Source of the DNA: Gemmatimonadota bacterium
GTDB taxonomy: Bacteria; 4572-55; J002
Assembly: GCA_003697105.1 (NCBI GenBank)
Contig: RFFQ01000183.1
Span: 1-45,051, forward strand
Length of the DNA stretch: 45,051 bases
Direction of reading: 5' to 3'
Made by a program: the position numbers and the translations under genes. The notes under the pieces are model-generated. The model made no database searches. It was not told the origin of the DNA and saw nothing but the letters and a program-made list of their open reading frames with translations. Of this stretch, positions 3,213 through 36,231 are shown piece by piece. The first letter of the stretch is position 1; each line of letters opens with the position of its first letter.

Positions 3213-5003
3213 TTGGATACTTCCAAAAAGCGACTTCTCTTTGAAGTTTATCGACCATACCGGGTGCTAATCCTCCTGTTTATTAGTATTTCCTTCTTTT
3301 CATCTATCCTCGACAGCATTTCTATCGGTCTATTTGTTCCAATCCTCGGTAGCTTGCAAGAGGTACAAGATACTTCGGCATTCCCTCCCGCGCTCCAATT
3401 TTTGTTAGATGCCTTCATGGTATTTCCCCCGGAACAACGCCTGTTATACTCTATGGGGGCAGTCATTGTATTGGTGATTCTCAAAAACTTGTTTATGGGA
3501 TTCGCATTTTTGCTGGGATTTTGGTTAGCTTCCAAAATTGTAGCCGATATCCGTGTCCGTATGATCAATGTGTTACTGCGCGTCCGGCAAGATTACTTTG
3601 ATAAATATCAGGTCGGGCGGCTGATCGATAAGGTGATGTATCATTCGCAGATGTTTCAAGTATTCCTGCAAGAAATCTGTCGATCTGTGGTCTTTTTGGG
3701 GTCATTATTCACCTTGCTAGTCTTGGCAATTGCGATCTCATGGCAGTTGACGCTACTGGCAACCGGGCTATTTTCTTTGATTATGATAATAATGCTTTTT
3801 TACGGGCGTTTACTCCACTATCTTGGCCAGAAACGCACTCTAGCGAGCCAAGATTTGTCCGGTAACTTAGGAGAACTCCTGAACGGTATCCGGGGGATCA
3901 AATATTTTAATAAAGAGACCCTTTACCAGCAAAAATTGAATCGCAGTATCCACCGGTTTCGGGTTGCCGCGTATCAAGCGAGTTTTGCGGGGTCACTGGT
4001 GATGCTGATTACAGAAAGCCTGGCAGTATTGGCAGTAGGTTTCCTGTTTGTGGTGGCGTTGAACGTTTTTGCCCCCGACAAAAGTGTTCTACAAATTCAA
4101 CTTTTGCCGTTTCTGTATATTCTGGTACGCATGGTGCCATTGATCAAGATGTTAAATTTCGCTAAGGGCAATATTATTAACCAGTTACCTTCAATAAATC
4201 TGGTTTTAGACCTGATTCGTACCGATGATAAACCGTTTTTAACCGATGGAACGCAGCCATTTACTCATCTGAAAAAGGAAATCCGGTTTGAAAATGTAAG
4301 TTTTGGGTATAAGACGGAAAAACCAGACGTAATCCGGCATCTAACACTTACCATCCCGAAAGGCAAAACCACGGCAATTGTGGGAGAGTCTGGAGCGGGC
4401 AAGTCAACTCTTATCAATTTGTTGCTACGGTTTTATGACCCCCAGAGCGGGCGCATTCTCATCGATGGGCAACCATTAACAAACTTTCGGATTGGTACCT
4501 TTCGGGATCAAGTGGGTATGGTCAGCCAAGAGACGTTTATCTTTAATGATACGATTCGGAATAATATCGCGTTCGGCGCTAAACATGAGGTTGACGACCT
4601 AGCGATCATCCGGGCAGCAACCCGGGCGAAAGCCCATGAATTTATCATGAAAACACCAAAGGGTTATGAAACCCCACTGGGTGACCGGGGGATAAATCTC
4701 TCAGTGGGACAACGCCAGCGGATTGCAATTGCGCGGGCACTCCTCAAAGACCCGGATATCCTGATTTTAGATGAAGCCACTTCTGCACTGGATAATCGCA
4801 CAGAAAAACAGGTGCATCACGCCCTGATGGAACTGTGCAAAAATCGCACAGTGATTATCATTGCCCACCGGTTGAGCACGATTCAACACGCGGATCAAAT
4901 CGTGGTGCTCAAAGCGGGTCAGGTGGTCGAATTGGGCAGTGAAACCCAGTTAATGAACCAAAAAGGTGAGTATTATCAATTGGCTCAGGCGACACATACC
5001 TGA
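3213..5003 (+). CDS. ABC exporter, fused permease + ATPase (MsbA-like)
   Basis: N-terminal multi-TM domain; Walker A GESGAGKST; LSVGQRQR signature; Walker B ILILDEATSALD; AHRLSTI. Confidence 0.92.
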   Translation: MDTSKKRLLFEVYRPYRVLILLFISISFFSSILDSISIGLFVPILGSLQEVQDTSAFPPALQFLLDAFMVFPPEQRLLYSMGAVIVLVILKNLFMGFAFLLGFWLASKIVADIRVRMINVLLRVRQDYFDKYQVGRLIDKVMYHSQMFQVFLQEICRSVVFLGSLFTLLVLAIAISWQLTLLATGLFSLIMIIMLFYGRLLHYLGQKRTLASQDLSGNLGELLNGIRGIKYFNKETLYQQKLNRSIHRFRVAAYQASFAGSLVMLITESLAVLAVGFLFVVALNVFAPDKSVLQIQLLPFLYILVRMVPLIKMLNFAKGNIINQLPSINLVLDLIRTDDKPFLTDGTQPFTHLKKEIRFENVSFGYKTEKPDVIRHLTLTIPKGKTTAIVGESGAGKSTLINLLLRFYDPQSGRILIDGQPLTNFRIGTFRDQVGMVSQETFIFNDTIRNNIAFGAKHEVDDLAIIRAATRAKAHEFIMKTPKGYETPLGDRGINLSVGQRQRIAIARALLKDPDILILDEATSALDNRTEKQVHHALMELCKNRTVIIIAHRLSTIQHADQIVVLKAGQVVELGSETQLMNQKGEYYQLAQATHT

Positions 5004-5034
5004 CCCCAGCATTCATCACCGAGTAGCTTCTACC

Positions 5035-5784
5035 ATGACCCCTATTTTTGAGCTAAAGAACGTCTGTAAGTCCTTCGGTAAGGTGACTGCACTAGATGGA
5101 ATTAACCTGACCATCATGCCTACGGAACGGGTGGCAATTGTGGGTCCCAGTGGTGCCGGTAAAACTACCTTGCTGAACCTACTGAATGGCTCGATCCGGC
5201 CAGATGCGGGAGAAGTTCGTGTGTTGGGGCAGAACCTCACCACACTGAGTCGGAAGCAACTGCGCCACATCCAGCGGCAGATCGGGACGGTGTACCAGCA
5301 GTTTCATCTCGTGGAGCCGCTACGGGTCATTCACAATATCAATGCCGGACATTTAGGACATTGGTCAGCGACAAAAGCGTTGTTTTCACTCATTAAACCA
5401 CTTGCGGTAGCGCAGGCACAGGAGGCATTGGTACAAGTAGGTATCCCCGAAAAGCTCTATGCGCAAACAAGCCATCTCTCTGGGGGACAAAAACAGCGGG
5501 TCGCGCTGGCGCGGGTATTGGTGCAGAACCCCCAAGCCATTCTTGCCGATGAACCTATCTCGAACCTTGATCCGCGTCGCCGGCATGAAATCATGGATTT
5601 AATTCGCCGGCTGGTCGATCAGACAGGTAAAACGTTAATCCTCAATCTTCATTCCATCGAATTTGCCTATACTCACTGCCACCGGATCATTGGATTGCGC
5701 CACGGGCGTATTCAGTTTGATGATGTTCCGGAGCGTATCAGCGAACAGCACGTGCATGAGCTTTACCGCCTTGAAACCCTCTGA
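5035..5784 (+). CDS. PhnC-like phosphonate/oxyanion ABC transporter ATP-binding protein
   Basis: [45 protein letters not shown] is typical of the PhnC family. Confidence 0.88.
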
Positions 5785-7444
5785 CACTCGCAACGTTCCA
5801 TCCCCGCCGCCGTTATGGCATCGCCGGTTTTGGTTGCTAAGTTTTGGGGTAGCTCTGGTGTTCTCGCTGGGGCAAACCGGTTTTTTTCGGGAAGAGTTGG
5901 TCAATTATGGCGGTGTCGCGTTGATCGGGCGGGTATTCGGTGCCGCCTTACACCCCGACCTGAGCCTCTCCTTTCTCCGCCTAACATTGGATGCCACATT
6001 GGTTACGCTGGCGTATGCCGTTTGCGGAACAGCATTTAGCCTGATCTTCGGCAGCCTATTGGCCTTACCCGCATCCCAGATATTTTGGAAGACCGTTTTC
6101 CGCCATGACGCCTCCTCGCGCCGGGCACGGGTCTGCTGGCTAACGGTACGGACACTCCTTGCCATACCACGGGGTATCCACGAATTCTTATGGGGCTTAA
6201 TTTTTATCAACATCTTAGGGCTAGACCCGATCTCGGCAATCCTCGCGATTACCATCCCTTTTGGCTCGATTGTCGCCAAAGTTTACTCGGAAACACTGGA
6301 TGAAACCTCACCAGTGGTGTTTAATGCTCTCCTTAACAGCGGCGCTAAACCATTCCCAGCACTGTTTTATGCCTTGATTCCTCAAGCTATACCAGATTTA
6401 GTCTCATATGCCTTTTACCGGTTTGAGTGTGCTATCCGAGCAGCGGCAGTATTGGGGGTAATCGGGGTGGGTGGATTGGGATACCAAATTTTGCTCAGCT
6501 TACAAAGTTTAAAATATCAGGAGTTGTGGACTCTCTTTTTTGCCCTGATGGTACTCAGTGGGGGTGCAGACCTTTGGAGTAGTGTGTTGCGGAAACGGCT
6601 CACACAGGAACAATCCGATTCCGCTTCCATTCGATTTTTAGTGCGCGGTTCAATCCTCTTAGCGATAGTATTATTACCGGTTTCACTCGGATATGTGCAG
6701 CCGGATTTTGGACGTATTTTTTCCGAGCGCACCGGTAGATTAATCATTTCTATCACAGATCAAGCGTTTCCACCGCGTTATGAACCGGGTCAAACGGGGT
6801 ACATGCTCGCCCTGTCAATGAAGACGCTGGCAATGTCGCTATTAGCGATGGTCTTTGCCAGTTTTGGTGGGATGGTCTTTGCCTTTTTTGCCGCCAGAAA
6901 CCTGCTTTTGCCGGGTGGGATTATGATCCCCGAAAAAGCGTCTCTCTGGCAGCGGTTTTCCGGCAGGTTGGTATGGGTTGTTTCCCGAATGATCCTGCTT
7001 TTTACGCGGGCGATCCCCGCCCCCATTTGGGCGCTAATCTGTCTCTTTGTGCTTTTCCCGGGTATTCTCCCCGGAGCGATTGCCCTCGGGCTTTACAATT
7101 TTGGGATCCTCGGACGTTTGATGGCAGAAGTAGTGGAACATCTAGACCCCCGCCCCCTAAATGCACTTAAACATCAGGGAGCTTCGGGCTGGCAAGTCTT
7201 TTTTTACGGCGTTCTGCCTTCAGCCATGCCCCGCTTTTTGGCATACAGCCTTTACCGGTGGGAAGTTTGCTTGCGGGCTACGGTGATTGTGGGGCTAGTG
7301 GGAGCTGGGGGTTTGGGCCGTCTCCTCACAGAGCAACTCAGCAGTTTTGATTACCGGGGATTAGGGGTTACGTTGGCATATTTCATCGCACTGACCTTTT
7401 TTGTTGACCTCGTGAGCGCCTTTGTCCGAAAGACATGGCATTGA
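5756..7444 (+). CDS. PhnE/PtxC family ABC permease (two fused permease modules)
   Basis: Duplicated motifs YRFECAIRAAAVLGVIGVGGLG and YRWEVCLRATVIVGLVGAGGLG. Start codon uncertain. Confidence 0.88.
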   Translation: MSFTALKPSDTRNVPSPPPLWHRRFWLLSFGVALVFSLGQTGFFREELVNYGGVALIGRVFGAALHPDLSLSFLRLTLDATLVTLAYAVCGTAFSLIFGSLLALPASQIFWKTVFRHDASSRRARVCWLTVRTLLAIPRGIHEFLWGLIFINILGLDPISAILAITIPFGSIVAKVYSETLDETSPVVFNALLNSGAKPFPALFYALIPQAIPDLVSYAFYRFECAIRAAAVLGVIGVGGLGYQILLSLQSLKYQELWTLFFALMVLSGGADLWSSVLRKRLTQEQSDSASIRFLVRGSILLAIVLLPVSLGYVQPDFGRIFSERTGRLIISITDQAFPPRYEPGQTGYMLALSMKTLAMSLLAMVFASFGGMVFAFFAARNLLLPGGIMIPEKASLWQRFSGRLVWVVSRMILLFTRAIPAPIWALICLFVLFPGILPGAIALGLYNFGILGRLMAEVVEHLDPRPLNALKHQGASGWQVFFYGVLPSAMPRFLAYSLYRWEVCLRATVIVGLVGAGGLGRLLTEQLSSFDYRGLGVTLAYFIALTFFVDLVSAFVRKTWH

Positions 7445-7541
7445 AGATTAAGGTTGATATTTTTGGATACGTATTGTAAATTTTCCGCATAGTATTAAGA
7501 ATGGGACGTACCTCATCTACGATACATATAAAGGAGTCATA

Positions 7542-8924
7542 ATGAGTGATAGTTATAAAGGTTACCGGGAGCCGGTATTAAGTGTACTCAAAAAAAACAA
7601 CGTTCGGGTGTGGAGCGAAGTAGAAATGCAAACCACTCGCGGGGAATTTAAGGGCTTGATTTTGCCCCGTTCCGAGACCGCCGATGCCAAACACATCGTC
7701 TTGAAATTGATCAATGGCTACAATATCGGGATTGCCGCCGAGTTGGTTCAGTCCATCCGGGAAGTGGGCTACAAAGAGGCACATTACCAAATTCCCGAAA
7801 AAGATTTTCCGGTAGATGAGGGCAAACCGAATGTCAAATTGCTCGGAACCGGAGGCACAATTGCCAGCCGGCTGGATTATCGCACTGGGGCGGTTATTCC
7901 GGCATTTTCTCCCGGCGAATTGTACGGCTCTGTACCGGAATTAGCGGATTACTGTAATCTGGAAACCGAAAAATTGTTCGGGGTGTTTAGTGAAAACATG
8001 GGTCCGGAACAGTGGATAAAAACCGCCGAAGCGATTGGTGAAGAAATTGAAAAGGGCGTGGACGGCATTGTCATCGGGCACGGCACGGATACGATGCACC
8101 ACACGGCGGCCGTACTCTCCTTTATGGTGCAGAATTCACCCATCCCGATTGTGATGGTCGGTTCGCAACGTTCGTCGGATCGCCCTTCGTCCGATGCCGC
8201 ACTCAACCTTATTCATGCCGTCAAGACGGCGGCGGAAAGTGATATGGCAGAAACGATGGTCTGTATGTTTGGTCCCACCTCGGATCAATACGGACTGTTA
8301 CATCGAGGGACGCGAGTTCGCAAAATGCACTCCTCGTACCGTTCCACCTTTCGGACGATCAGTGATATACCGCTGGCAATGGTGGACCGGGATAAGATAA
8401 CACCCCTACGGCAAGATTACAAACGGCGGCGCTCAGACCGGAATGTGAATATCAACGCCGTGTTCGAGGAAAAAGTCTCCATCGTCTATTATTATCCCAA
8501 TATGAAGCCGGACATCATCGATTCGTTGGTGGACAATGGGTACCGGGGTATTGTCATTGCCGGAACGGGGTTAGGTCATGTCAATAAGCCGGTCTATCCG
8601 GCATTACAACGCGCACGGGAGCACGGTGTGGCAGTTTACATGACGGTACAAACGTTATGGGGCTATGTGCAAATGTATGTCTATGAAACCGGACGGGAAA
8701 TGATGCAACTGGGTGTTGTTCCTACGGCAAATATGCTTCCGGAAACGGCGTATGTGAAATTGGGTTGGGCATTGGGGCAAACAGATGATCTGGAAAAAGT
8801 GAAGGAGATCATGTTGACCCCTATTAGTGGAGAAATCACAGAACGTGAGCCTTACAACGGCTATTTAGTCTATCAAGGGGGTATCCCCGAAGTAGAAGAA
8901 TTTTTGCGACAAATTAAGCGCTAA
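7542..8924 (+). CDS. gatD: Glu-tRNA(Gln) amidotransferase subunit D (GatD; asparaginase fold plus N-terminal GatD domain)
   Basis: N-terminal LPRSE..D..HIVLKL.NGYNIG domain; TGGTIASRLDYRTGAV; GHGTDTM; GSQRSSDRPSSDA; RGTRVRKMHSS. AAGGAG RBS. Confidence 0.88.
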   Translation: MSDSYKGYREPVLSVLKKNNVRVWSEVEMQTTRGEFKGLILPRSETADAKHIVLKLINGYNIGIAAELVQSIREVGYKEAHYQIPEKDFPVDEGKPNVKLLGTGGTIASRLDYRTGAVIPAFSPGELYGSVPELADYCNLETEKLFGVFSENMGPEQWIKTAEAIGEEIEKGVDGIVIGHGTDTMHHTAAVLSFMVQNSPIPIVMVGSQRSSDRPSSDAALNLIHAVKTAAESDMAETMVCMFGPTSDQYGLLHRGTRVRKMHSSYRSTFRTISDIPLAMVDRDKITPLRQDYKRRRSDRNVNINAVFEEKVSIVYYYPNMKPDIIDSLVDNGYRGIVIAGTGLGHVNKPVYPALQRAREHGVAVYMTVQTLWGYVQMYVYETGREMMQLGVVPTANMLPETAYVKLGWALGQTDDLEKVKEIMLTPISGEITEREPYNGYLVYQGGIPEVEEFLRQIKR

Positions 8925-8946
8925 ACCTACCAGTACACATGAAAGT

Positions 8947-8994
8947 GGTGCCAACTCCCAACCGGTTGGCACCCCGACGGATATATCTATCCGT
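8947..8994. repeat. Two adjacent inverted repeats (operator-, REP- or terminator-like)
   Basis: GGTGCCAAC-N9-GTTGGCACC (8947-8973) and ACGGATA-TATC-TATCCGT (8977-8994). Confidence 0.6.
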
Positions 8995-9037
8995 ATCTAT
9001 TTTCTCCGATTAAGCCCAAAGGGAGGTTGGCTTAATC

Positions 9038-12000
9038 ATGCCAAAAACACACCTCACATCTCAATCCCCCCGTTTCACAGGGAGACAACTTCCGATTACG
9101 ATAGGGCTAGTGATCATCATCGCGGCGGTGTTTAGCTTGAGTGAGGGGTTTCACCGTCAAACGGCTGAAATTGAACGACTTCAAACCCTTGCCAACATCG
9201 TGGGTGAGCAGTGCATAGAGCCGATCCTCGAAAATGATCCCGCTTCAGCTAAAATCATTTTGAGCCGCCTCAACGCAGACCCGTGCATTCAAGCAGTCGC
9301 AATTTACAATCCCGATGGTGATATTTTTACCGCCTATAATCCCAACGATCGCTTCTTGCAGACTCAATCCACTGCAGGGCATCACATTGACGATAAACAA
9401 CTGAAAATTTACCACAAAATTTTTCTGCTGGATGAATACATGGGTACGGTGGTGCTCTACGCTCAACCCCCCGATTTATGGGGTATTTGGAAGCGCAATC
9501 TACTCATTGCGTTGGTGTTAATACCACTTCTGCTCTGGGCGCAAATACGTATTTTCAACCGGCGACGGGACACCCGCACTGCCGTACTGGATACCCTCCA
9601 AAAACCCCTTCACGAACTAACCGAAATCAGCCAGGCGGTGGCTCAAGGCAACCGGCTTTCCATCCGGGCAGAAATACCGGAAATTCCTGAAATGGAAGAG
9701 CTGGTTAATGCCTTTAACACGATGTTGGCTAAGATCGAACAAGACCAACATGCGCTACAACAGGCAAAAGAAGCCGCTGAACATGTTGCCCAGCATGCCC
9801 AGCGCCAAGCAGACCATTTACAAGAGACCAATCTGAAACTCAGCCGGGAGATTGAAAAGCGCACCCGCGCGGAACACCTGCTCGAACACCGGCTGCAAGC
9901 AGAACAACTTATCGCCAATATTTCCTCGCATTTTATCAATTTGCCGGTGGACATGATCGACTATGGGGTCAATTACGCGCTGGAGTTAATCGGGGAGTTT
10001 TTGGGGGTCAAACACGGTTATATTTTTATGTTTTCGGAGCAGCGCACCCGTATCCGTCGTGTTTATGATTGGAGTCAGGCAAATACGGCTATCCATGTGG
10101 GGCGTGTTCGGGAAGTGATTTCAGTGGAAAAATCCCCGTGGTTGATTGACAAAATCCGTACTCAGGAAATTGTTGCCCTGCCCAATATTCAGGATTTACC
10201 GGCAGAAGCCCACTCCGAAAAAACCACCTTTTTGGAAAACCATATTCACTCCATGCTCGGCATTCCATTGTCATACACCGGTGTTTTACTGGGGTTTATG
10301 GGGTTCGATGCACCTCAACCGCGCTCGGAATGGTCAACAGATGACATCAAAGTCGTTATGACCGCCGGAGAAATTCTAGTTAATGCTTTGGAACGTAAAA
10401 AGGCAGAAATTGCCTTGCGCGAGAGCGATTCCCGCTTCCGCCAGTTAGCAGAAAATATTGATCAATGCTTTTGGCTTTACGATACCCGACAGGGGTTTTT
10501 GTATGTCAGTTCCGCTTATGAGCGCATCTGGGGTGACTCTATTGAACAGATCAAAACCGATCCGACAGCTTGGCTTGACCGGCTATCTCCAGAAGACCAG
10601 CAAAAATTCAAAGGGGATATGAACCGGTTGTTTACGCCGGGTTTTGATGGTGAACTTCGCATCCAAAAGGCAGGCGAAACCCGCTGGTTGCGGATACGAA
10701 CCTTTGCCGTACCCACCGAAAATCCAGATGAAAGTATGCGTGTCTGCGGCATCACAGAGGACATCACCGCCCAGAAGCGTTCGGAAAACCGGTTGCGCTC
10801 CTACGCCGCTGAATTGGAACACAAAACCCAACAACAACACATGGTGGAAAAAGCGTTGGAGCAACGCGTCCTCTTTGAACGCCTCATTGCAGATATTTCT
10901 ACCCATTTCATCAATCTTCCGGCAGATATGATCCCTTATGGCGTGGACTACGCCTTACAAATGATCTGCGATGTCATTCAAGCCGACCATGCCTACATCT
11001 GGATGTTCACAGAACAACGAACAAAATTTCAAAAAGCGTTTGATTGGTGGGATCATCAAACCTTGGTGGGGTCACCGCCAGTTGATTTTGTTTTGCCGCT
11101 GGATGAGGGCAGTTGGTTTCTGGAAAAGATTAAACAATTAGAGACCATCGCGGTGGCGCATCTCCGTGACCTTCCACCGGAAGCACAACGGGAAAAACTG
11201 CATTTAAGTACCATCGGGGTGCAATCCTTTATCGTGTTACCACTGGTATATACCGGCGTACTCATTGGCTTTTTAGGGTTTGATGCCATTCGGTGCGAAA
11301 AAGAGTGGACGGAATCCGAGATCAGCCTGATGAATACGGTTGCTGAGATTTTGGTCAATGCGTTAGAGCGGAAACAAGCCGAAGAAGCCTTACGGGAGAG
11401 TGACTCTCGCTTCCGGCAACTCGCCGAAAATATCAATCAGTGTTTTTGGCTGTATGATACCCGGCAAGGGTTTTTGTATGTCAGTCCCGCATTTGAATTG
11501 ATTTGGGGATTTTCACGCGAAGCCCTACTCCAACATCCGCAAACGATGTTGGATCAGGTCATCGCGGACGATCAAGCTAAATTCAAAGGTAGCTTGACCC
11601 AGATGCTTAAAGCGGGGTACGATGAGGAGTTTCGGATTGAAAAAGCGGATGGCTTGCATTGGTTGCGCACCCGCACCTTTGCGGTTCACGCGGAAGGATT
11701 AGGACAAGGGCAGCGAGTTTGCGGCATCACAGAAGACATCACCAAGGAGAAAATTACGCAGGAGCAGTTCCGCACCTATGTCAAGGCACTGGAAATCAAA
11801 ACCCAAAAGCAGATGGAAGCCGAAAAAGCGTTAGCAGCCGAAAAAGAACGACTGCTAGTCACTTTGCGCAGTGTCGCTGATGGGGTGATCGCGACCGATA
11901 CGCACGGCCAGATTGTGTTGATGAATACGATTGCCGAGCATTTGACGGGCTGGAAAGAATCCGATGCCCTGAATAAACCGTTGAATGAAGTTTTGCGAGT

Positions 12001-12931
12001 CGTGGATGAACCCTCCCGGCATGTCCGCACAGATATTTTGAATAACGTCCTCCACCGGGGGCGGATTATCCATTTCTCCCGGGATGATGTGTTGGTTTCA
12101 CGGAACAAAAGTGAATATTATATTTCGGGCAATGCGGCACCGATTCAAGACGGGACAGGCGTGATTATCGGGGCCGTGATTGCTTTCCACGATGTGACCG
12201 AAACCCGCCGCTTGGAGCAATCCAAAACCAATTTTATCAATGCCATCACACACGAATTGCGCACACCACTGACCCCCATCATTGGGTACACCGCACTCCT
12301 CCAAAGTATGGACTTACCGGAGATGGCACAGGAAAGCCTCGCCGCCATCGCGAAAGCCGCCGACCGGGAGAAAAAACTGGTGGAACAGTTATTGGCGGTT
12401 GCCCGGTTGGAAAATAGTCAACGGGAGTTCCGTTTTAATAAGGTCAATGCCTACCAGTGCTTCACCGAAATTTGTGAGGATAGCGAAGTGCTCGTCAAGG
12501 AGGTTGTACGAGAACGGCATCGTACGGACCGGTTTACGTACCAATACACATTCTCGGAAGAGTTGCAGGAAACCACGATCAATATTGATCTGGATTGCAT
12601 GTACAGCATCATGGAAAATCTGCTGGTGAATGCCGTCAAATATTCTCCACCGGATCGACTCTCGTTTGCGGTGTCCGGTTACCGGCAAAATGATCATGTG
12701 ATCATCGCGGTGAAAGATCAGGGAAATGGTATTTCCAAAGCGGAACAACCCCGCATCTTCAAAACGTTTTACCAGATTCGGAAAGGTGAATTTGATGTTT
12801 CCGATGGAATTGGACAGGGGTTGGCGATTGTGAAACGGTTTGTGGAAGCCCACGACGGAGTGATTTCCGTAGAGAGCGAACTCGGGAAAGGTAGCGAGTT
12901 TATTATTGAATTACCGGTTGTGGAGACCTAA
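9038..12931 (+). CDS. Multi-sensor histidine kinase (periplasmic sensor, HAMP, 2x GAF-PAS, PAS, HisKA, HATPase)
   Basis: Two TMs; H-box THELRTPLTPI; N-box NLLVNAVKY; DQGNGI; GQGLAIV; a 325-aa internal duplication. Confidence 0.92.
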   Translation: MPKTHLTSQSPRFTGRQLPITIGLVIIIAAVFSLSEGFHRQTAEIERLQTLANIVGEQCIEPILENDPASAKIILSRLNADPCIQAVAIYNPDGDIFTAYNPNDRFLQTQSTAGHHIDDKQLKIYHKIFLLDEYMGTVVLYAQPPDLWGIWKRNLLIALVLIPLLLWAQIRIFNRRRDTRTAVLDTLQKPLHELTEISQAVAQGNRLSIRAEIPEIPEMEELVNAFNTMLAKIEQDQHALQQAKEAAEHVAQHAQRQADHLQETNLKLSREIEKRTRAEHLLEHRLQAEQLIANISSHFINLPVDMIDYGVNYALELIGEFLGVKHGYIFMFSEQRTRIRRVYDWSQANTAIHVGRVREVISVEKSPWLIDKIRTQEIVALPNIQDLPAEAHSEKTTFLENHIHSMLGIPLSYTGVLLGFMGFDAPQPRSEWSTDDIKVVMTAGEILVNALERKKAEIALRESDSRFRQLAENIDQCFWLYDTRQGFLYVSSAYERIWGDSIEQIKTDPTAWLDRLSPEDQQKFKGDMNRLFTPGFDGELRIQKAGETRWLRIRTFAVPTENPDESMRVCGITEDITAQKRSENRLRSYAAELEHKTQQQHMVEKALEQRVLFERLIADISTHFINLPADMIPYGVDYALQMICDVIQADHAYIWMFTEQRTKFQKAFDWWDHQTLVGSPPVDFVLPLDEGSWFLEKIKQLETIAVAHLRDLPPEAQREKLHLSTIGVQSFIVLPLVYTGVLIGFLGFDAIRCEKEWTESEISLMNTVAEILVNALERKQAEEALRESDSRFRQLAENINQCFWLYDTRQGFLYVSPAFELIWGFSREALLQHPQTMLDQVIADDQAKFKGSLTQMLKAGYDEEFRIEKADGLHWLRTRTFAVHAEGLGQGQRVCGITEDITKEKITQEQFRTYVKALEIKTQKQMEAEKALAAEKERLLVTLRSVADGVIATDTHGQIVLMNTIAEHLTGWKESDALNKPLNEVLRVVDEPSRHVRTDILNNVLHRGRIIHFSRDDVLVSRNKSEYYISGNAAPIQDGTGVIIGAVIAFHDVTETRRLEQSKTNFINAITHELRTPLTPIIGYTALLQSMDLPEMAQESLAAIAKAADREKKLVEQLLAVARLENSQREFRFNKVNAYQCFTEICEDSEVLVKEVVRERHRTDRFTYQYTFSEELQETTINIDLDCMYSIMENLLVNAVKYSPPDRLSFAVSGYRQNDHVIIAVKDQGNGISKAEQPRIFKTFYQIRKGEFDVSDGIGQGLAIVKRFVEAHDGVISVESELGKGSEFIIELPVVET

Positions 12932-13165
12932 AGTTGCTTTCCATTTTACTATGGGTTTTATGACCGGTGTTGGGTATTTCGTACGGCGGTCTGTTCGTGT
13001 ATCCGTTTAACAACCCCAGATTATTTGCTGGTGCCAACGATGCCGGTGTCACATGTTTTGGAAAGCAGGATTTGTTCAACCGCCAAAGCCGGGCGGGCAC
13101 TTCTACCAAGATAGACCGGCACATTTCCCGGGTCAACCGTGATACCTGTTTTCTTTCGATTCAGA

Positions 13166-14116
13166 TTAATCGACAATTTTCCCGATCTGGCGCCCCACCG
13201 CTTCAATGTGATCATAATTGGCGTTTGTGGTGGGGATAAATTGGGTGGCGCCAAACATATCAAGGATTTTTGCCTGTGTGGAATCTGCCGCATTCAAGGC
13301 GGTAAAGGCATCCGTTACCTTTTGTGGAAAATCTGTACCGTAACGAGTTATGACATCCGGGTGAATCACCCAATGATAGTCATGATAAGCGGGTGTGCGC
13401 CAGATAGCTTGCACTTTTGCCAAATCAACATCTCCCGTCTGGAGCCGGCTATACCAAACCTGCTCATTAAGCACGCCGGCATCGTATGCTCCGGCGGTAA
13501 CCAGTTCGATGGTTTTATCATGGGAGCCGGAAAAGCCGGGTTCACCCTTAAAATCGGTCAATTCTATTCCGGCTTGGCTCAAAAAGTACTGGGGCATCAA
13601 CCGCCCGGAAGTGGAGGATTCACTCCCGAAGGTGAACGTGTGCCCTTTTAACGCACCGAGTTTTTCCCGCACCACATCCCACTCATCGGTGTCGGCGATG
13701 GGTTGCAAACCCGTGGAGGTATTGGCGATAAAAATAGAATGAAACTCGGCGTCAATATCCCGTTGAACGAGCGCCTGAGCACCGGGTACTTGCAACCGCG
13801 CCTGTACTCCAGTTAAACCTCCAAACCAGACCATATCCAGATCACCCACTCGAAAAGCGGTCACGGCGGCAGTATAATCGGTGACCGGTTTGTATTCCAC
13901 CGGAACACCCAATTTTTCAGAGAGATAGGCGGCGAGATCACCATATAACCGTTGCAATTTTTCCGGGTCTTGATCGGGAATTGCCCCAATGACAAAAGGG
14001 GGTGTTGAGGGAGATGTCCCGCTTTGCTGGTGTGTGGTTTGTGAATTGTTCTGCGGAGAACATGCGGTTAGCAACCCCATCAGAATTAGTATCAACAGAT
14101 TCAACATACGCGGCAT
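13166..14116 (-). CDS. PhnD-family ABC substrate-binding lipoprotein (putative selenate/phosphonate type)
   Basis: Lipobox LLTAC; GAIPDQDPEKLQRLY, VTDYTAAVTAFRVGDLDMVWFGGLTGVQAR, FGSESSTSGRLMP. Confidence 0.88.
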   Translation of the reverse strand: MPRMLNLLILILMGLLTACSPQNNSQTTHQQSGTSPSTPPFVIGAIPDQDPEKLQRLYGDLAAYLSEKLGVPVEYKPVTDYTAAVTAFRVGDLDMVWFGGLTGVQARLQVPGAQALVQRDIDAEFHSIFIANTSTGLQPIADTDEWDVVREKLGALKGHTFTFGSESSTSGRLMPQYFLSQAGIELTDFKGEPGFSGSHDKTIELVTAGAYDAGVLNEQVWYSRLQTGDVDLAKVQAIWRTPAYHDYHWVIHPDVITRYGTDFPQKVTDAFTALNAADSTQAKILDMFGATQFIPTTNANYDHIEAVGRQIGKIVD

Positions 14117-19020: not shown

Positions 19021-19512
19021 TTAATCCAAATAAAGGCTTTTGATTTTACCCCATGTTTTATTTTTTTTATGGGAAATTCCGAGCATCTGATTCAATTTGT
19101 CCCGCAACAAACGTTCCCCCGGGAGTTCCAAACTTTGAGAGACAATTTCATTTTCCGCATTAATAAGCAAATACCCCTGTTCGTCCATCGCAAACAGATC
19201 GGCGAACGTTCCGTCATCTTGCAGAAGCGGATATAAAGCTGAAGTGGATTCAACTGAGACTGATTCAGGAGAAACCACCCATACATCCAGATGGTAATCG
19301 GTATAATCGGTAAGTATAGCCTCATAGGGGGCTATATCAGTAGAATTGCCGGTGTAGATGATTATCAACGGTGTTACGGCGCGGGTCGAAAGGGTATATA
19401 GCTGATGGTCACTATCAGGCAGGGTGAAGTCTGGTGCGGTTTTAGCACCTACCGTGGAGAGTGAAAATAAAGTTAGAATTGTAATGATGCCCAATCCTGA
19501 TGTGAATCTCAT
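19021..19512 (-). CDS. Exported redoxin-fold (AhpC/TSA-like) protein without cysteines, with a C-terminal TWGKIK motif
   Basis: Signal peptide; APDFTLPD; YPLLQD; YLLINAENEI. No Cys in the protein. Ends TWGKIKSLYLD. Confidence 0.65.
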   Translation of the reverse strand: MRFTSGLGIITILTLFSLSTVGAKTAPDFTLPDSDHQLYTLSTRAVTPLIIIYTGNSTDIAPYEAILTDYTDYHLDVWVVSPESVSVESTSALYPLLQDDGTFADLFAMDEQGYLLINAENEIVSQSLELPGERLLRDKLNQMLGISHKKNKTWGKIKSLYLD

Positions 19513-19552
19513 AAAATCACCTTCTAAACCATCAAGCAACATAACAAAAAAA

Positions 19553-19628
19553 TGGCTGGGGCGGCAGGATTCGAACCTGCGAATGCTGGAACCAAAATCC
19601 AGTGTCTTAGCCGCTTGACGACGCCCCA
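19553..19628 (-). tRNA. tRNA-Gln (anticodon TTG)
   Basis: TGGGGCG...CTGGA-TTTTGGT-TCCAG...GCAGG-TTCGAAT-CCTGC-CGCCCCA-G-CCA; 76 nt cloverleaf with encoded CCA. Confidence 0.97.
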
Positions 19629-22634: not shown

Positions 22635-23486
22635 ATGATCAGACTCAATCGATTGAAATCCAAATGGCAGATATGCGGTAGAATTCCGCTGGCGCAACTT
22701 GTCGCGGCACGACAGCAATTACATCAAGCGGCACAACTTGTGGGGGCGTTTGGGATGTCCTATTTGGAGCCTCAACCGGATGGCATACATGCCCGGCTGG
22801 TCTGGATTGATCGCTTAAAGGGTGTGGCTTCCGCTCCTGCCAAGACATATCGAGTTGGACTCCGCTTACCGGATTTAACCTTGCTGTGGCTCGATGAATT
22901 CGGTATGATTTTAAGCGAATATGGAATGCGTCAGCAGACACTTAGCCACACGTTGGCGTGGTTGAAAGACCATTTAACACACGCGGGATTCAATCCGGAT
23001 CAATTCATGATGGAGACCCCATCCGGTTTAGCTGGGGGAGCAACGAGCCGGTTTCAGGTGGATAATCCAAAAGCATTTGATGAACTCACCCGCTATTTTA
23101 GTAATGCACATCTCATTTTAGAGGCATTAGCGGCAAAACTTTCACCCGGGAACAAGGTCTATTGCCGGGCCAAGCCATTTGATATCCGTTTTGTCTATTT
23201 TTTGGATCAATCTTCGGAGTCCACGTCACAACAATCGATTTGTTTGGGGTTATCTTTGGGGGATACAGCATTTTCCGAACCGTACTTTTATGGTCAATTT
23301 TTACCTGAGCCGGACGTAAATCCGAACAGCTTGCCTGAACTTGCCGGAGCGGGACAGTGGTACACGGACGCTTGGTTTGGCACGGCGTTACCAGCGTCGC
23401 AAATTGTAACCGATTCCGAAGATCACCAATTACAGCAAATTAGTAACTTTTTGGAATCCACTCTTCAGGCGGTTTCTCATTTTTAA
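22635..23486 (+). CDS. Hypothetical protein (resembles DUF5996-like family)
   Basis: 283-aa ORF with R.QLH.AAQ and GLSLGD..FSEPYFY motifs. Family assignment is tentative. Confidence 0.55.
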   Translation: MIRLNRLKSKWQICGRIPLAQLVAARQQLHQAAQLVGAFGMSYLEPQPDGIHARLVWIDRLKGVASAPAKTYRVGLRLPDLTLLWLDEFGMILSEYGMRQQTLSHTLAWLKDHLTHAGFNPDQFMMETPSGLAGGATSRFQVDNPKAFDELTRYFSNAHLILEALAAKLSPGNKVYCRAKPFDIRFVYFLDQSSESTSQQSICLGLSLGDTAFSEPYFYGQFLPEPDVNPNSLPELAGAGQWYTDAWFGTALPASQIVTDSEDHQLQQISNFLESTLQAVSHF

Positions 23487-24186: not shown

Positions 24187-24770
24187 CTATTCATTTTCGA
24201 TATACTCCGCGATTATCTCCAAATCAGATTCTATCTGGTGGAACGCTTCAAATTCTTCTTTACCCCCAAACCATTCCAGCGTTTTGGCACGCGCTACTTT
24301 GGTCGATCGGGTCGAGCAGATTGCCTGATAAGATGAAAAAGGCCACTTGCGGAAATCATCCACAAAACCATGTTTTTGCGGATTGCGGTGAATGTAGGCG
24401 ATCAGGGTGGCGAAATAACGCTCATCCTGGACGGGTTTCCGTTTGAACGGTTTTTCGAACAGGCTGCCCGTCCGCCCGTAGGCCTTGTTGATGGCTTTGT
24501 GTAGGTGCTGAACAGGTTGGAAAACGCTTGGGAGGGGGACTTTAAGGACTTTAAGGACTGGCAGTCCTCAGAGGACTGCCAGTCCTGAGGATCGAGAATT
24601 CTCACCAGCAGATGAAAATGATTGCGCAACAGGCAATAGGCATAGGTTTCTACCACAGGCTCGATATATCTGGCATACAATTTCATGAAGTAGGTATAGT
24701 TGCGGGTTTCGATGAACAGGTTTTCACGGTTGTTGCCGCGGTTGTAGATATGATAGATGACGCCGAGAGA
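24187..24770 (-). mobile_element. RAYT / IS200-like Y1 tyrosine transposase, frameshifted
   Basis: YHIYNRGNNRENLF, YAYCLLRNHFHLL (HUH). After a 1-nt frameshift near 24497 the frame continues KAINKAYGRTGSLFEKPFKRK...YIHRNPQKHG...WPFSSY...IENE-stop (24187). Confidence 0.85.
24554..24586. repeat. REP-like palindrome inside the RAYT coding sequence
   Basis: AGGACTGGCAGTCCTC-A-GAGGACTGCCAGTCCT is a perfect 16-bp inverted repeat, preceded by GGACTTTAA x2. Confidence 0.85.
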
Positions 24771-24776
24771 GGACTT

Positions 24777-24809
24777 AGGACTGCCAGTCCTTTGAGGACT
24801 GGCAGTCCT
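24777..24809. repeat. REP-like palindrome upstream of the RAYT
   Basis: AGGACTGCCAGTCCT-TTG-AGGACTGGCAGTCCT is a perfect 15-bp inverted repeat built from the same unit as 24554-24586. Confidence 0.85.
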
Positions 24810-24821
24810 GTCGGTTGAAGG

Positions 24822-24875
24822 CAGTTTATCAGCCGTGGCCCACAGGGTTTTTTCGAGTTCGTAATTGTCTGGCAT
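24822..24875 (-). pseudogene. hsdM: N-terminal fragment of a type I R-M methyltransferase (HsdM)
   Basis: MPDNYELEKTLWATADKL matches the HsdM start LEKxLWxxADKL(R), then breaks off just before the REP palindrome. Confidence 0.65.
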
Positions 24876-24954
24876 GGGCACATTACCTGTAATGTACGAT
24901 GTGGTTGGCTCATTGAGAATGAGGCTAAGCAAAACAACGGTGGTTCCACGTTGT

Positions 24955-25695
24955 TTACATGTGCATACCGCCATCCACCGATAGGGTCTGTCCGGTCAGG
25001 TAATCGGCATCTTCAGATGCCAAAAAGAGGACTACTTTCGCTACATCTTCCCCGGTTCCCATCCGACCCAGCGGAATTTGCTGGAGATAACTTGCTTTGA
25101 CCTCATCCGGTAAATTCGCGGTCATATCGGTTTCGATAAAGCCCGGTGCAACGGCATTCACGGTGATATTCCGGCTGGCAAGCTCTTTTGCTACGGATTT
25201 CGTAAAACCGATAACCCCTGCTTTGGATGCCACATAATTCGACTGCCCGGCATTGCCCATTAGCCCGACCACACTGGTAATGTTGATAATGCGTCCATAG
25301 CGTTGCTTCATCATCAAACGTGTGACCGCCTTAGTACAGTTGAATGTACCCGTTAGATTAATGTCGATCACTTGTTGCCAATCTTCTGGCTTCATGCGCA
25401 TTAGCAGGGTGTCTTTGGTAATGCCGGCATTATTGACCAAAATGTCAATTCGTCCAAAGGTCTCTTTTGCCTGTTGGATCATGTTGTCAACCGACTCTGA
25501 GTCCCGGACATCCACCGCCACTGGGAGAGCTTGCCGTCCCATTGCTTCGATTTCGGTTGCCACTGCGGCACATGCTCCTTCGGTTCGGCTACCAATAACC
25601 AAATGAGCGCCTTCGCCTGCTAAGGTGAGGGCAATCGCCTTTCCAATTCCGCGTGAAGCGCCGGTAACTAACGCAATTTTATCTTGTAACCGCAT
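24955..25695 (-). CDS. fabG: 3-oxoacyl-[acyl-carrier-protein] reductase
   Basis: TGASRGIG, NNAGITKDTLLMRM, GNAGQSNYVASKAG, VAPGFIETDMT. GAGGA RBS before ATG 25695. Confidence 0.95.
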   Translation of the reverse strand: MRLQDKIALVTGASRGIGKAIALTLAGEGAHLVIGSRTEGACAAVATEIEAMGRQALPVAVDVRDSESVDNMIQQAKETFGRIDILVNNAGITKDTLLMRMKPEDWQQVIDINLTGTFNCTKAVTRLMMKQRYGRIINITSVVGLMGNAGQSNYVASKAGVIGFTKSVAKELASRNITVNAVAPGFIETDMTANLPDEVKASYLQQIPLGRMGTGEDVAKVVLFLASEDADYLTGQTLSVDGGMHM

Positions 25696-34736: not shown

Positions 34737-34913
34737 ATGCGGTGGATGGATGGTTTATCAACTTTGGAAGATGGGCTTGTCCGCGTCCGAATAAACACGG
34801 AAGTTACCGGTAAACTCACGACGATTTAGAGCTTGACAACACCGGGAATCACACCTATTCTGGACAGATGGAATCCCGATTTTAGGTGAATCTCAGATGA
34901 ACTTAAGGTGACT

Positions 34914-35732
34914 ATGACAGAAGAATTCCCCACGATATGGCACTATTACAAATCCGCGTTTTGGGAAAAGGCGAATTTGATCGGGTTAGCCGCCACTGCG
35001 GCCGCTGCCATTTTTGGTGACCCCATGTATTTGGCAATTGGGGCGGGGTTGGAAGTGGCGTATCTGGCAGTCGTACCGAATTTACCACGTTACCGCCAAA
35101 AAATAGCCCGCCAGCAAAAGGCACTCCTACTCGCACAGAAACGTGCCGAACGTCATAAAAAATATGAGATGCTGTCCACAGTAGAAAAACTGCGGTTCCG
35201 CCGGTTGGAGCGGCAAGTGAGTAAAATTCGCCGGATGGTGAATGACTCCGGCTCAGATATGATGTTCTTGATTGAATCCGATATTGCGAAACTCGATTAT
35301 CTCCTTGAATCCTTTCTTAACCTTTCACTGAATTTGAAACGGTATCAGCGCCATCTGCAATCTACGGATCGCCGCTCTATTGAATCCAATCTCCGCCAAT
35401 TACAGGAGCGTCTTGCCACCGATGAAGTCCTCGCTAAAAGTTCTTCTGCCCGGACTGCCGTCCAGAAAAATATATCCATCTTAGAGAAACGGCTCAATAA
35501 ACTCGATGACCTCGAGGGGCATTTAAAAACCCTGCAAGCCCAATTAGAAACCATTGATGACACCCTCGGATTGCTGCATGACCAAGTGCTAACGATGAAT
35601 TCCCCAGAGGAACTTTCCACCGAATTAGATGCCCTAATCTCTAACGTGGAAATTACCGAGCAAACCCTGCTAGATACCGCCACCTATTTCGGGGATTTGC
35701 ACCATCTGGAGCGCGAACTCAAGACATCATAA
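34914..35732 (+). CDS. Hypothetical membrane-anchored coiled-coil protein
   Basis: N-terminal hydrophobic hairpin followed by long heptad-rich helices. Upstream TTGACA-N17-TATTCT. Confidence 0.75.
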   Translation: MTEEFPTIWHYYKSAFWEKANLIGLAATAAAAIFGDPMYLAIGAGLEVAYLAVVPNLPRYRQKIARQQKALLLAQKRAERHKKYEMLSTVEKLRFRRLERQVSKIRRMVNDSGSDMMFLIESDIAKLDYLLESFLNLSLNLKRYQRHLQSTDRRSIESNLRQLQERLATDEVLAKSSSARTAVQKNISILEKRLNKLDDLEGHLKTLQAQLETIDDTLGLLHDQVLTMNSPEELSTELDALISNVEITEQTLLDTATYFGDLHHLERELKTS

Positions 35733-36147: not shown

Positions 36148-36231
36148 GTAATTTAAATCGCCGCTTTTCCGTTCACATCCCATGGTTTCAGTTTCTTGCG
36201 TATTCTATCAATAGAAAGGAAGATAAGCCCC

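Follow-up and report, generated by a model that had tools for sequence, protein, structure and literature searches.

A gatD gene in a Gemmatimonadota bacterium and its gatE partner on another contig of the same genome

Introduction

Why would a bacterium carry a gene for GatD? The question is raised by a 45,051-nucleotide stretch of DNA from a Gemmatimonadota bacterium (GenBank assembly GCA_003697105.1, contig RFFQ01000183.1), referred to here as the window, in which positions 7542-8924 encode a GatD of 460 amino acids. GatD is one of the two subunits of the GatDE amidotransferase, and in archaea the GatDE route is essential. Two papers state that GatDE occurs only in archaea (PMC2811023; PMC9499178).

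An initial annotation, made from the letters of the window, noticed that gatE was missing there and proposed that the lineage either uses a bacterial GatDE pathway for Gln-tRNA(Gln) or has repurposed GatD as the ammonia donor for another synthetase. As described below, we found a complete gatE elsewhere in the genome and numerous bacterial relatives of both genes, and we consider it fairly probable that this GatD is a subunit of a complete bacterial GatDE amidotransferase, a parallel route to Gln-tRNA(Gln) being its most likely role.

Results

The gatD gene and its product

7542-8924, plus strand: gatD coding sequence, ATG start, 460 amino acids (open reading frame, Pfam, NCBIfam and alignment to solved chains)

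No other long open reading frame (ORF) lies in this interval. In the predicted protein the GatD-specific N-terminal domain (Pfam GatD_N, residues 24-72, 48.9 bits, cut-off 25.7) precedes the two asparaginase domains, Asparaginase (residues 97-288, 193 bits) and Asparaginase_C (residues 311-424, 116.5 bits). Both NCBIfam equivalog models for GatD are passed (TIGR02153 gatD_arch, 522.8 bits, cut-off 324; NF003217, 520.7 bits, cut-off 310), as is the asparaginase subfamily model TIGR00519 (397 bits), the scores with the type II and E. coli-type asparaginase models being far under the cut-offs. The ORF, Pfam and both equivalogs agree with the initial annotation, which had described a complete 460-residue GatD with its N-terminal domain, and all the motifs it had quoted are in place: GGTIAS (within GTGGTIAS, residues 102-109), HGTDT (180-184), RKMHS (260-264) and the signature GSQRSSDRPSSD (207-218). 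GTGGTIAS, HGTDT and RKMH line up with the corresponding motifs of the GatD chains 1ZQ1_A and 2D6F_A, and the threonine in GGT, HGTDT and the lysine in RKMH are what we take to be the catalytic residues. Over residues of about 17-442 the solved GatD chains score 423 bits (1ZQ1_A) and 401 bits (2D6F_A) with the window protein, plain solved asparaginases 130-149 bits. Type I L-asparaginases of the AnsA kind (1WLS, 5OT0) have the same two-domain catalytic core but no GatD_N, and match with at most 149 bits. The window ORF is an intact, true GatD and not a plain AnsA asparaginase.

gatE and other amidation genes in the genome

Contig C65, which the window covers from end to end, belongs to a 4.18-Mb assembly of 199 contigs (G000) with an estimated completeness of 96.85% and an estimated contamination of 0.66%. 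The window has no gatE, as the initial annotation had observed; the genome-wide search for gatE matched contigs C144 and C7 only. The amidation genes found in the assembly, each above its curated cut-off where this is stated, were the following.

G000:C144:2658-4547, minus strand: gatE, ORF of 647 amino acids (TIGR00134, 457 bits, cut-off 319.55)
C7: gatB (566 bits, above the curated cut-off)
C53: gatA (599 bits, above the curated cut-off)
C53, adjoining gatA: gatC (63.6 bits, above the curated cut-off)
Ends of C97 and C78: glnS in two pieces, hidden Markov model (HMM) positions 1-255 and 307-524 (427 and 244 bits)
G000:C10:7598-8977: asnS (634 bits, above the curated cut-off)
C67: gltX (548 bits, above the curated cut-off), the sole GluRS found

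Residues 17-645 of the C144 protein align with the solved GatE chains 1ZQ1_C (333 bits) and 2D6F_C (304 bits), and it has the Pfam GatB_N domain, which is the catalytic domain of GatB and GatE, and a YqeY-type tail. The genome holds a single gatD and a single gatE, on different contigs and each well inside its contig; gatD is the only gene of the asparaginase family that the genome search found. The missing gatE was therefore a property of the window only, and the idea of a GatD repurposed as ammonia donor loses its ground, because a complete gatE above the cut-off is present on C144 and its product falls in the same sub-clade of relatives as GatD. The initial annotation would have counted against the GatDE pathway a genome lacking gatE and having glnS or gatCAB; glnS and gatA, gatB and gatC were all found, and so was gatE.

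The C97 piece of glnS scores above the cut-off of 425.8 bits and the C78 piece below it; the two are most simply one gene broken by an assembly gap. The closest solved match of the GluRS is Thermotoga maritima GluRS1 (433 bits). No AsnB-type asparagine synthetase scored over the cut-off in the genome (best hit 80 bits against 267; AsnA was not searched for), and the two other genomes of the phylum have 2 and 5 AsnB copies. We also observed that on the asnS model the AsnRS of this genome scores 634 bits and those of the two phylum-mates 454 and 469 bits, their open frames (435-443 amino acids, against 469) being about 30 residues shorter; judged by these scores and lengths, the AsnRS of the phylum-mates may be of another origin.

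Bacterial relatives and gene order

When one genome per prokaryotic species was scanned, at least 470 GatD relatives were confirmed among at least 599 stretches, and the 80 loci counted below are the best 80 of these relatives. Their GatD is 79-88% identical to that of the window, all of them carry bacterial labels (Calditrichota, Neomarinimicrobiota, KSB1, Ignavibacteria, Melioribacter, Aminicenantes, Cloacimonetes and others), and some are found on contigs as long as 1-2.6 Mb. Scanning again from a representative with 62% identity added Planctomycetota, Krumholzibacteriota, Zixibacteria, Gemmatimonadales, a bin labelled Myxococcales and an Odoribacter. Public annotation already names the bacterial genes GatD and GatE. 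By homology both GatDE subunits are encoded in hundreds of bacterial species genomes and the window is one ordinary case, which removes the premise that this lineage is an oddity.

In 79 of the 80 loci gatD is preceded by gatE on the same strand, and the remaining locus has only 153 nt of upstream sequence. The gap between the two genes has a median of 44 nt; it is at most 200 nt in 62 loci and exceeds 1 kb in two. The GTDB phylum of the window consists of three species genomes, that of the window (G000), G001 and G002. In G001 gatE and gatD are adjacent and gatB was not found, in G002 gatB is present and neither gatD nor gatE was found; GlnRS and AsnRS occur in all three, both amidotransferases only in the genome of the window. 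Because 79 of 80 relatives, and G001 too, keep gatE next to gatD, the split arrangement is a derived one, and gene order indicates that gatE was separated from gatD by genome rearrangement in the lineage of the window. Around gatD and gatE, this genome shares with G001 or with locus L013 no flanks that would explain the split, only scattered matches elsewhere.

Neither gene looks decayed, because their end branches lie within the range of the relatives: 0.10 for GatD (median 0.091) and 0.47 for GatE (median 0.31, range 0.09-0.56). No conserved third gene accompanies gatE-gatD, the next commonest neighbour family being found in 9 of the 80 loci, and tRNA genes (one tRNA-Leu, one tRNA-Glu) stand beside the pair in only 2 of the 80, which does not indicate a link. 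In three genomes glnS adjoins gatE-gatD (L059 and L088, that is 2 of the 80 loci, and G113). One cluster representative, P0002, is a fusion: its 943 residues comprise a GatE catalytic domain without the tail (GatB_N, 24-304) and a complete GatD (GatD_N, Asparaginase and Asparaginase_C, 511-907) that is 60% identical to the GatD of the window.

Phylogeny and the C-terminal extension of GatD

For a GatD tree, 65 hand-chosen rows were analysed with IQ-TREE (LG+C20 mixture, short search). Besides the window protein they comprised 21 loci from bacteria, 12 named loci from archaea, 29 cluster representatives and 2 outgroups. The window protein, 18 rows with bacterial labels and 6 unlabelled rows form one clade with 99% support in the Shimodaira-Hasegawa-like approximate likelihood ratio test (SH-aLRT), so that it groups with GatD and not with plain asparaginases, a point that the initial annotation had proposed to settle by phylogeny. 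This bacterial clade is nested among archaeal GatD. Its sister is a bin labelled Thermoplasmatota (100%), and the next sisters are a representative named Sigynarchaeota by NCBI and two unlabelled ones (99%). A FastTree tree of 159 rows, which do not include the Thermoplasmatota bin, has the same bacterial clade with the Sigynarchaeota-named sister. The plain asparaginase of G002 forms a long outgroup branch, and the very long outgroup branch makes the root of the GatD tree unsure. The simplest reading of these trees would be one old transfer from archaea to bacteria followed by spread among bacteria.

GatD of the window has a C-terminal extension of about 18 residues (...QGGIPEVEEF...; approximately residues 443-460, window 8868-8921), before which the alignments with the solved GatD chains stop. 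The extension is present in all 25 rows of the bacterial clade and in the three nearest archaeal or unlabelled relatives; none of the other 35 rows has it.

Two contigs with bacterial labels, L123 (Krumholzibacteriaceae) and L129 (Limnocylindrales), have a GatD that falls inside Bathyarchaeia in the tree. This position probably reflects either mis-binning of archaeal contigs or separate recent transfers.

Co-occurrence with GlnRS, AsnRS, GatB and AsnB

Of the 80 carrier genomes 50 were searched, picked mainly for longer contigs and blind to the outcome. GlnRS was found in 43 of them, AsnRS in 41 and GatB in 24, counts to be read with the facts that completeness is not given for this sample, that several of the misses are small assemblies and that the hit coordinates of G016 are the same as those of G001. 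All three were found in 19 carriers, and GlnRS and AsnRS without GatB in another 19.

A second sample consisted of 121 genomes taken evenly from the class around one carrier labelled Ignavibacteriota.

GlnRS found: 24 of 25 GatD carriers, 38 of 96 non-carriers
GatB not found: 6 of 25 GatD carriers, 5 of 96 non-carriers
AsnB not found: 7 of 25 GatD carriers, 21 of 96 non-carriers

AsnRS was found in 117 of these 121 genomes. Among the 59 without GlnRS, 58 have GatB and one has GatD, which keeps GatB as well. GatDE, GlnRS, AsnRS and GatB occur together in 16 of the 25 carriers of the class and in 19 of the 50 carriers of the first sample.

The raw co-occurrence of GatD and GlnRS in the class sample is strong (Fisher p 1.4e-7). 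It was compared with an RpoB tree of the sample (120 genomes; G149 was left out, and the branch of G108 is abnormally long, probably from a wrong frame), which requires at least 11 changes of state for GatD and at least 13 for GlnRS. Only 8 independent pairs differ in GatD; of these, 3 have GlnRS changing in parallel, about 1 has it changing in the opposite sense and about 4 show no difference in GlnRS (sign test p ~0.6), thus a functional link between GatD and GlnRS is not significant beyond shared ancestry. Replacement of GatCAB by GatDE was rejected in a similar manner: the raw p is 0.01, within the GlnRS-positive genomes GatB is missing from 6 of 24 carriers and 4 of 38 non-carriers (p 0.17), and the independent pairs show nothing.

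Some individual genes in these samples deserve mention. In G003, a carrier that also has GlnRS, gatB (G003:C3:853317-854770) extends over two open frames (HMM positions 2-304 and 343-480) and may be a broken gene. Seven of the nine lowest GatB hits in the 121-genome sample (about 510 bits or less, or partial) belong to G081, G090, G099, G108, G125, G151 and G167. Six of these seven are members of one 12-genome clade in which 11 of 12 have GatDE, G108 standing apart on its faulty long branch; the scores suggest that GatB is divergent in this single lineage. G003, located elsewhere in the tree, and G135, a non-carrier with a partial hit, account for the remaining two low hits. The glnS match of G112 (G112:C1:44094-45645) is broken into two pieces and contains 4 in-frame TGA codons, which could mean a pseudogene or a different reading of TGA in this genome.

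Surroundings of gatD and the tRNA genes

7454-7482, plus strand: sigma-70-like promoter match TTGATA-17 nt-TAAATT, 9 of 12 consensus positions, in the 97-nt gap between permease gene and gatD (consensus scan)
7532-7536, plus strand: Shine-Dalgarno-like AGGAG, 5 bases ahead of the gatD ATG, read from the sequence, a putative ribosome binding site
8947-8973, plus strand: hairpin 1, 10 G+C-rich pairs, just 3' of the gatD stop
8977-8994, plus strand: hairpin 2, 7 pairs followed by a T-rich tail (terminator scan)
19553-19628, minus strand: tRNA-Gln(UUG) (ARAGORN; U1-A72, G73), one of two tRNA-Gln genes in the genome

The ribosome binding site that the initial annotation had ascribed to gatD would be the AGGAG at 7532-7536. 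The promoter match is weak, five sigma-70-like sites being found in a 1.85-kb region where 2.5 are expected, and the host group may use other promoter types. The hairpin region (8947-8994) folds as RNA with -24.5 kcal/mol (z -3.69), and 0 of 200 shuffles were equally stable; its form suggests a possible terminator, which would make gatD a one-gene unit.

The neighbours of gatD in the window are bacterial, as had been described: ClpP, MlaE, ABC transporters, a PAS/GAF histidine kinase, a SurA-like peptidyl-prolyl isomerase, SSB, ThyA, DHFR and IMPDH. A phosphonate-type ABC transporter cluster (4966-7444 and 13166-14116; ATPase, fused double permease, binding protein) is split by gatD and a CHASE8/HAMP/GAF/PAS histidine kinase of 1297 amino acids, so that ATPase and permease genes lie upstream of gatD and the genes of the large kinase and of the phosphonate-binding protein downstream. 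An ORF at 36196-39093 (plus strand, 965 amino acids) belongs to no Pfam family at E 1e-5 or better, and the same is true at E 1e-5 of the ORFs at 22635-23486 (plus), 24402-24974 (minus), 34908-35732 (plus) and 19021-19542 (minus).

The tRNA-Gln(UUG) gene lies about 10.6 kb from gatD and is not adjacent to it; its product is a candidate substrate of GatDE. U1-A72 and G73 are found in both tRNA-Gln genes and in tRNA-Asn. ARAGORN also called a fifth tRNA with a CAT anticodon (G000:C122:3071-3145), which has A1-U72 and a poorly paired acceptor stem and could be either a spurious prediction or an unusual tRNA.

Composition and independent contigs

The G+C content is 0.478 for C65, 0.486 for C144 and 0.485 for the genome, and the tetranucleotide distances of C65 and C144 are at the 30th and 80th percentile among contigs of similar length. 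Logan contigs from runs X1 and X2, which belong to one study, cover positions 5000-10117 and 5000-13500 of the window, the X2 contig with six letters different; these runs may be the source of the window DNA. Short contigs from X3, of another study, and from X4 extend over 7438-7564 and 7434-7652, positions that take in the intergenic region and the beginning of gatD. The runs with matching contigs are labelled hot-spring metagenomes. The order permease-gatD-kinase is not a quirk of one assembly, because contigs of other runs reproduce it, and the suspicion of a chimera, which the initial annotation had raised itself, was not borne out either by these junctions or by the composition, which fits the bin.

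Discussion

We think it moderately likely that GatD of the window works with the GatE encoded on C144 as a bacterial GatDE amidotransferase, and that it most probably provides a parallel route to Gln-tRNA(Gln). By homology with the solved archaeal enzymes, GatD would hydrolyse glutamine or asparagine at its asparaginase-type active site, the ammonia would pass from GatD to GatE, and GatE would use ATP to activate, then amidate, the side-chain carboxyl of a mischarged aminoacyl-tRNA. The likeliest reaction would be the conversion of Glu-tRNA(Gln) to Gln-tRNA(Gln), carried out alongside GlnRS, AsnRS and GatCAB as an accessory or parallel route. We infer that GatD binds GatE and that gatD is expressed, as well as the substrate tRNA and the amide donor. 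The bacterial GatDE pathway for Gln-tRNA(Gln) foreseen in the initial annotation thus stands in so far as GatDE is encoded; it cannot be the sole, nor is it necessarily the main, route to Gln-tRNA(Gln), because GlnRS and GatCAB are encoded as well, and with GlnRS, AsnRS and GatCAB present GatDE is not needed for either of the two amide aminoacyl-tRNAs.

Several observations weigh against a role in Gln-tRNA(Gln) formation. GlnRS (in two contig-end pieces) and a complete GatCAB are there, and nothing in the genome requires GatDE for this purpose. The single GluRS, if it is discriminating, would leave no Glu-tRNA(Gln) as substrate. Archaeal GatDE is reported (PMC9499178) to read the A1:U72 pair of tRNA(Gln); the tRNA-Gln of this genome has U1-A72, so recognition must differ from the archaeal model, and as tRNA-Asn has U1-A72 too, the pair could not separate tRNA-Gln from tRNA-Asn. 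Carriers nearly always keep GlnRS (43 of 50 and 24 of 25 in the two samples), GatDE being almost never a stand-in for it, and the lack of an AsnB hit over the cut-off would suit a role in asparagine synthesis.

The last point leads to the explanation that we rank second, namely that GatDE amidates Asp-tRNA(Asn), alone or together with GatCAB, and supplies asparagine in a genome without AsnB. We consider it unlikely, though not to the degree of those discussed after it. The contrast with the 2 and 5 AsnB copies of the phylum-mates speaks for it, as do the U1-A72 pair and G73 shared by tRNA-Asn and tRNA-Gln and the presence of GlnRS in nearly all GatDE carriers. Each of the 28 genomes of the class sample that lack AsnB has an amidotransferase, GatB in 27 of them and GatDE alone in G115, and all 5 genomes with neither amidotransferase have AsnB. 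On the other side, PMC9499178 describes archaeal GatDE as acting specifically on Glu-tRNA(Gln), the presence of GatD and the absence of AsnB are unlinked (7 of 25 against 21 of 96, p 0.6), and AsnB is found in 5 of the 6 GatD-positive genomes without GatB. AsnRS is near-universal (117 of 121 and 41 of 50), G115 is the only genome having GatDE as sole amidotransferase and no AsnB (AsnA was not searched for), and the synthetase gene beside gatED in three genomes is glnS, not asnS.

That GatDE is a redundant leftover without present function, on its way to being lost, seems to us quite improbable. Its functions overlap with those of GlnRS, AsnRS and GatCAB, and the gatE-gatD operon is broken, as one would expect of such a remnant. 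Yet both ORFs are intact with conserved motifs, the 79-88% identity of GatD across several phyla points to strong purifying selection, and the frequent fourfold overlap in carriers (16 of 25 and 19 of 50) means that this is a stable rather than a transient state.

Slightly less probable still is a GatD that is uncoupled from gatE and acts alone, either as a free asparaginase or glutaminase or as an ammonia donor to another enzyme. The gene has its own ribosome binding site, promoter-like site and hairpins after the stop, it is set among transporter and sensor genes and not among translation genes, and no other gene of the asparaginase family was found in the genome. However, the genome has kept a complete gatE with catalytic and tail domains and no unusual divergence, GatD retains GatD_N, a domain that free asparaginases do not have, it is 84-88% identical to relatives encoded in gatE-gatD operons, and it has not acquired a conserved new neighbour.

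Least credible of all is a foreign origin of gatD as an archaeal contaminant, a mis-binned contig or a chimera: the assembly is a 199-contig bin and L123 and L129, with bacterial labels and Bathyarchaeia-like GatD, show that mis-binning occurs in the GatD family, but gatD is 7.5 kb inside a 45-kb contig rich in bacterial housekeeping genes and typical of its bin in composition, independently built contigs of other runs span both of its junctions, its closest relatives are bacterial, up to 88% identical and partly on contigs of 1-2.6 Mb, and the bacterially labelled rows fall together, with 99% support, in a clade separate from the archaeal rows.

In sum, a parallel route to Gln-tRNA(Gln) is the most likely role, formation of Asn-tRNA(Asn) or asparagine comes second, and the other explanations are unlikely.

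It is interesting to compare this putative enzyme with known systems. Archaeal GatDE (Pyrococcus abyssi, 1ZQ1; Methanothermobacter thermautotrophicus with tRNA-Gln, 2D6F) has the same domain order in both subunits, which align over their whole length, and shares the asparaginase-type motifs and the catalytic and tail domains of GatE. It differs in that the host of the window is a bacterium with GlnRS, whereas archaea are said to be without GlnRS (PMC9499178), that the host tRNA-Gln has U1-A72 in place of A1:U72, that gatD and gatE are unlinked, and that GatD has the tail of about 18 residues. Within the bacterial GatDE clade (Ignavibacteria, Calditrichota, Marinimicrobia, KSB1, Aminicenantes, Zixibacteria, Planctomycetota and others) the GatD of the window is an inside member, with GlnRS and AsnRS alongside as in most carriers, and is unusual in lacking an adjacent gatE. 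A parallel is offered by Thermus, Deinococcus and Bdellovibrio, in which, according to PMC4206432, GatCAB is kept beside GlnRS and AsnRS and serves tRNA-dependent asparagine synthesis. There too an amidotransferase is retained despite both direct synthetases; the ammonia-releasing subunit is, however, the amidase-type GatA and not an asparaginase-type GatD, and the genome of the window has GatCAB as well.

A wider and rather speculative possibility, which we regard as doubtful, is that bacterial GatDE is an accessory amidotransferase almost confined to GlnRS genomes and has a job that is not on record for GatDE: to supply Asn-tRNA(Asn) or asparagine where AsnB is missing, to clear erroneous Glu-tRNA(Gln), or to serve one tRNA-Gln isoacceptor under nitrogen stress. 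The GatD tail and the switch from A1:U72 to U1-A72 might then be part of the change of role.

Judged by their titles, none of the papers on GatDE since 2013 covered by our search, which left out most subscription journals and supplements, is about bacterial GatDE, and no paper pairing GatDE with Ignavibacterium, Caldithrix or Melioribacter was among the matches listed; of the papers listed for the phylum names, none mentions GatDE. Bacterial GatDE is well annotated in databases and neglected in the literature, and the split gene order of the window is rare. The belief that GatDE is confined to archaea feeds arguments on the early evolution of glutamine coding. The general question posed by these genomes is why GatDE persists, highly conserved, in bacteria already equipped with GlnRS, AsnRS and often GatCAB.

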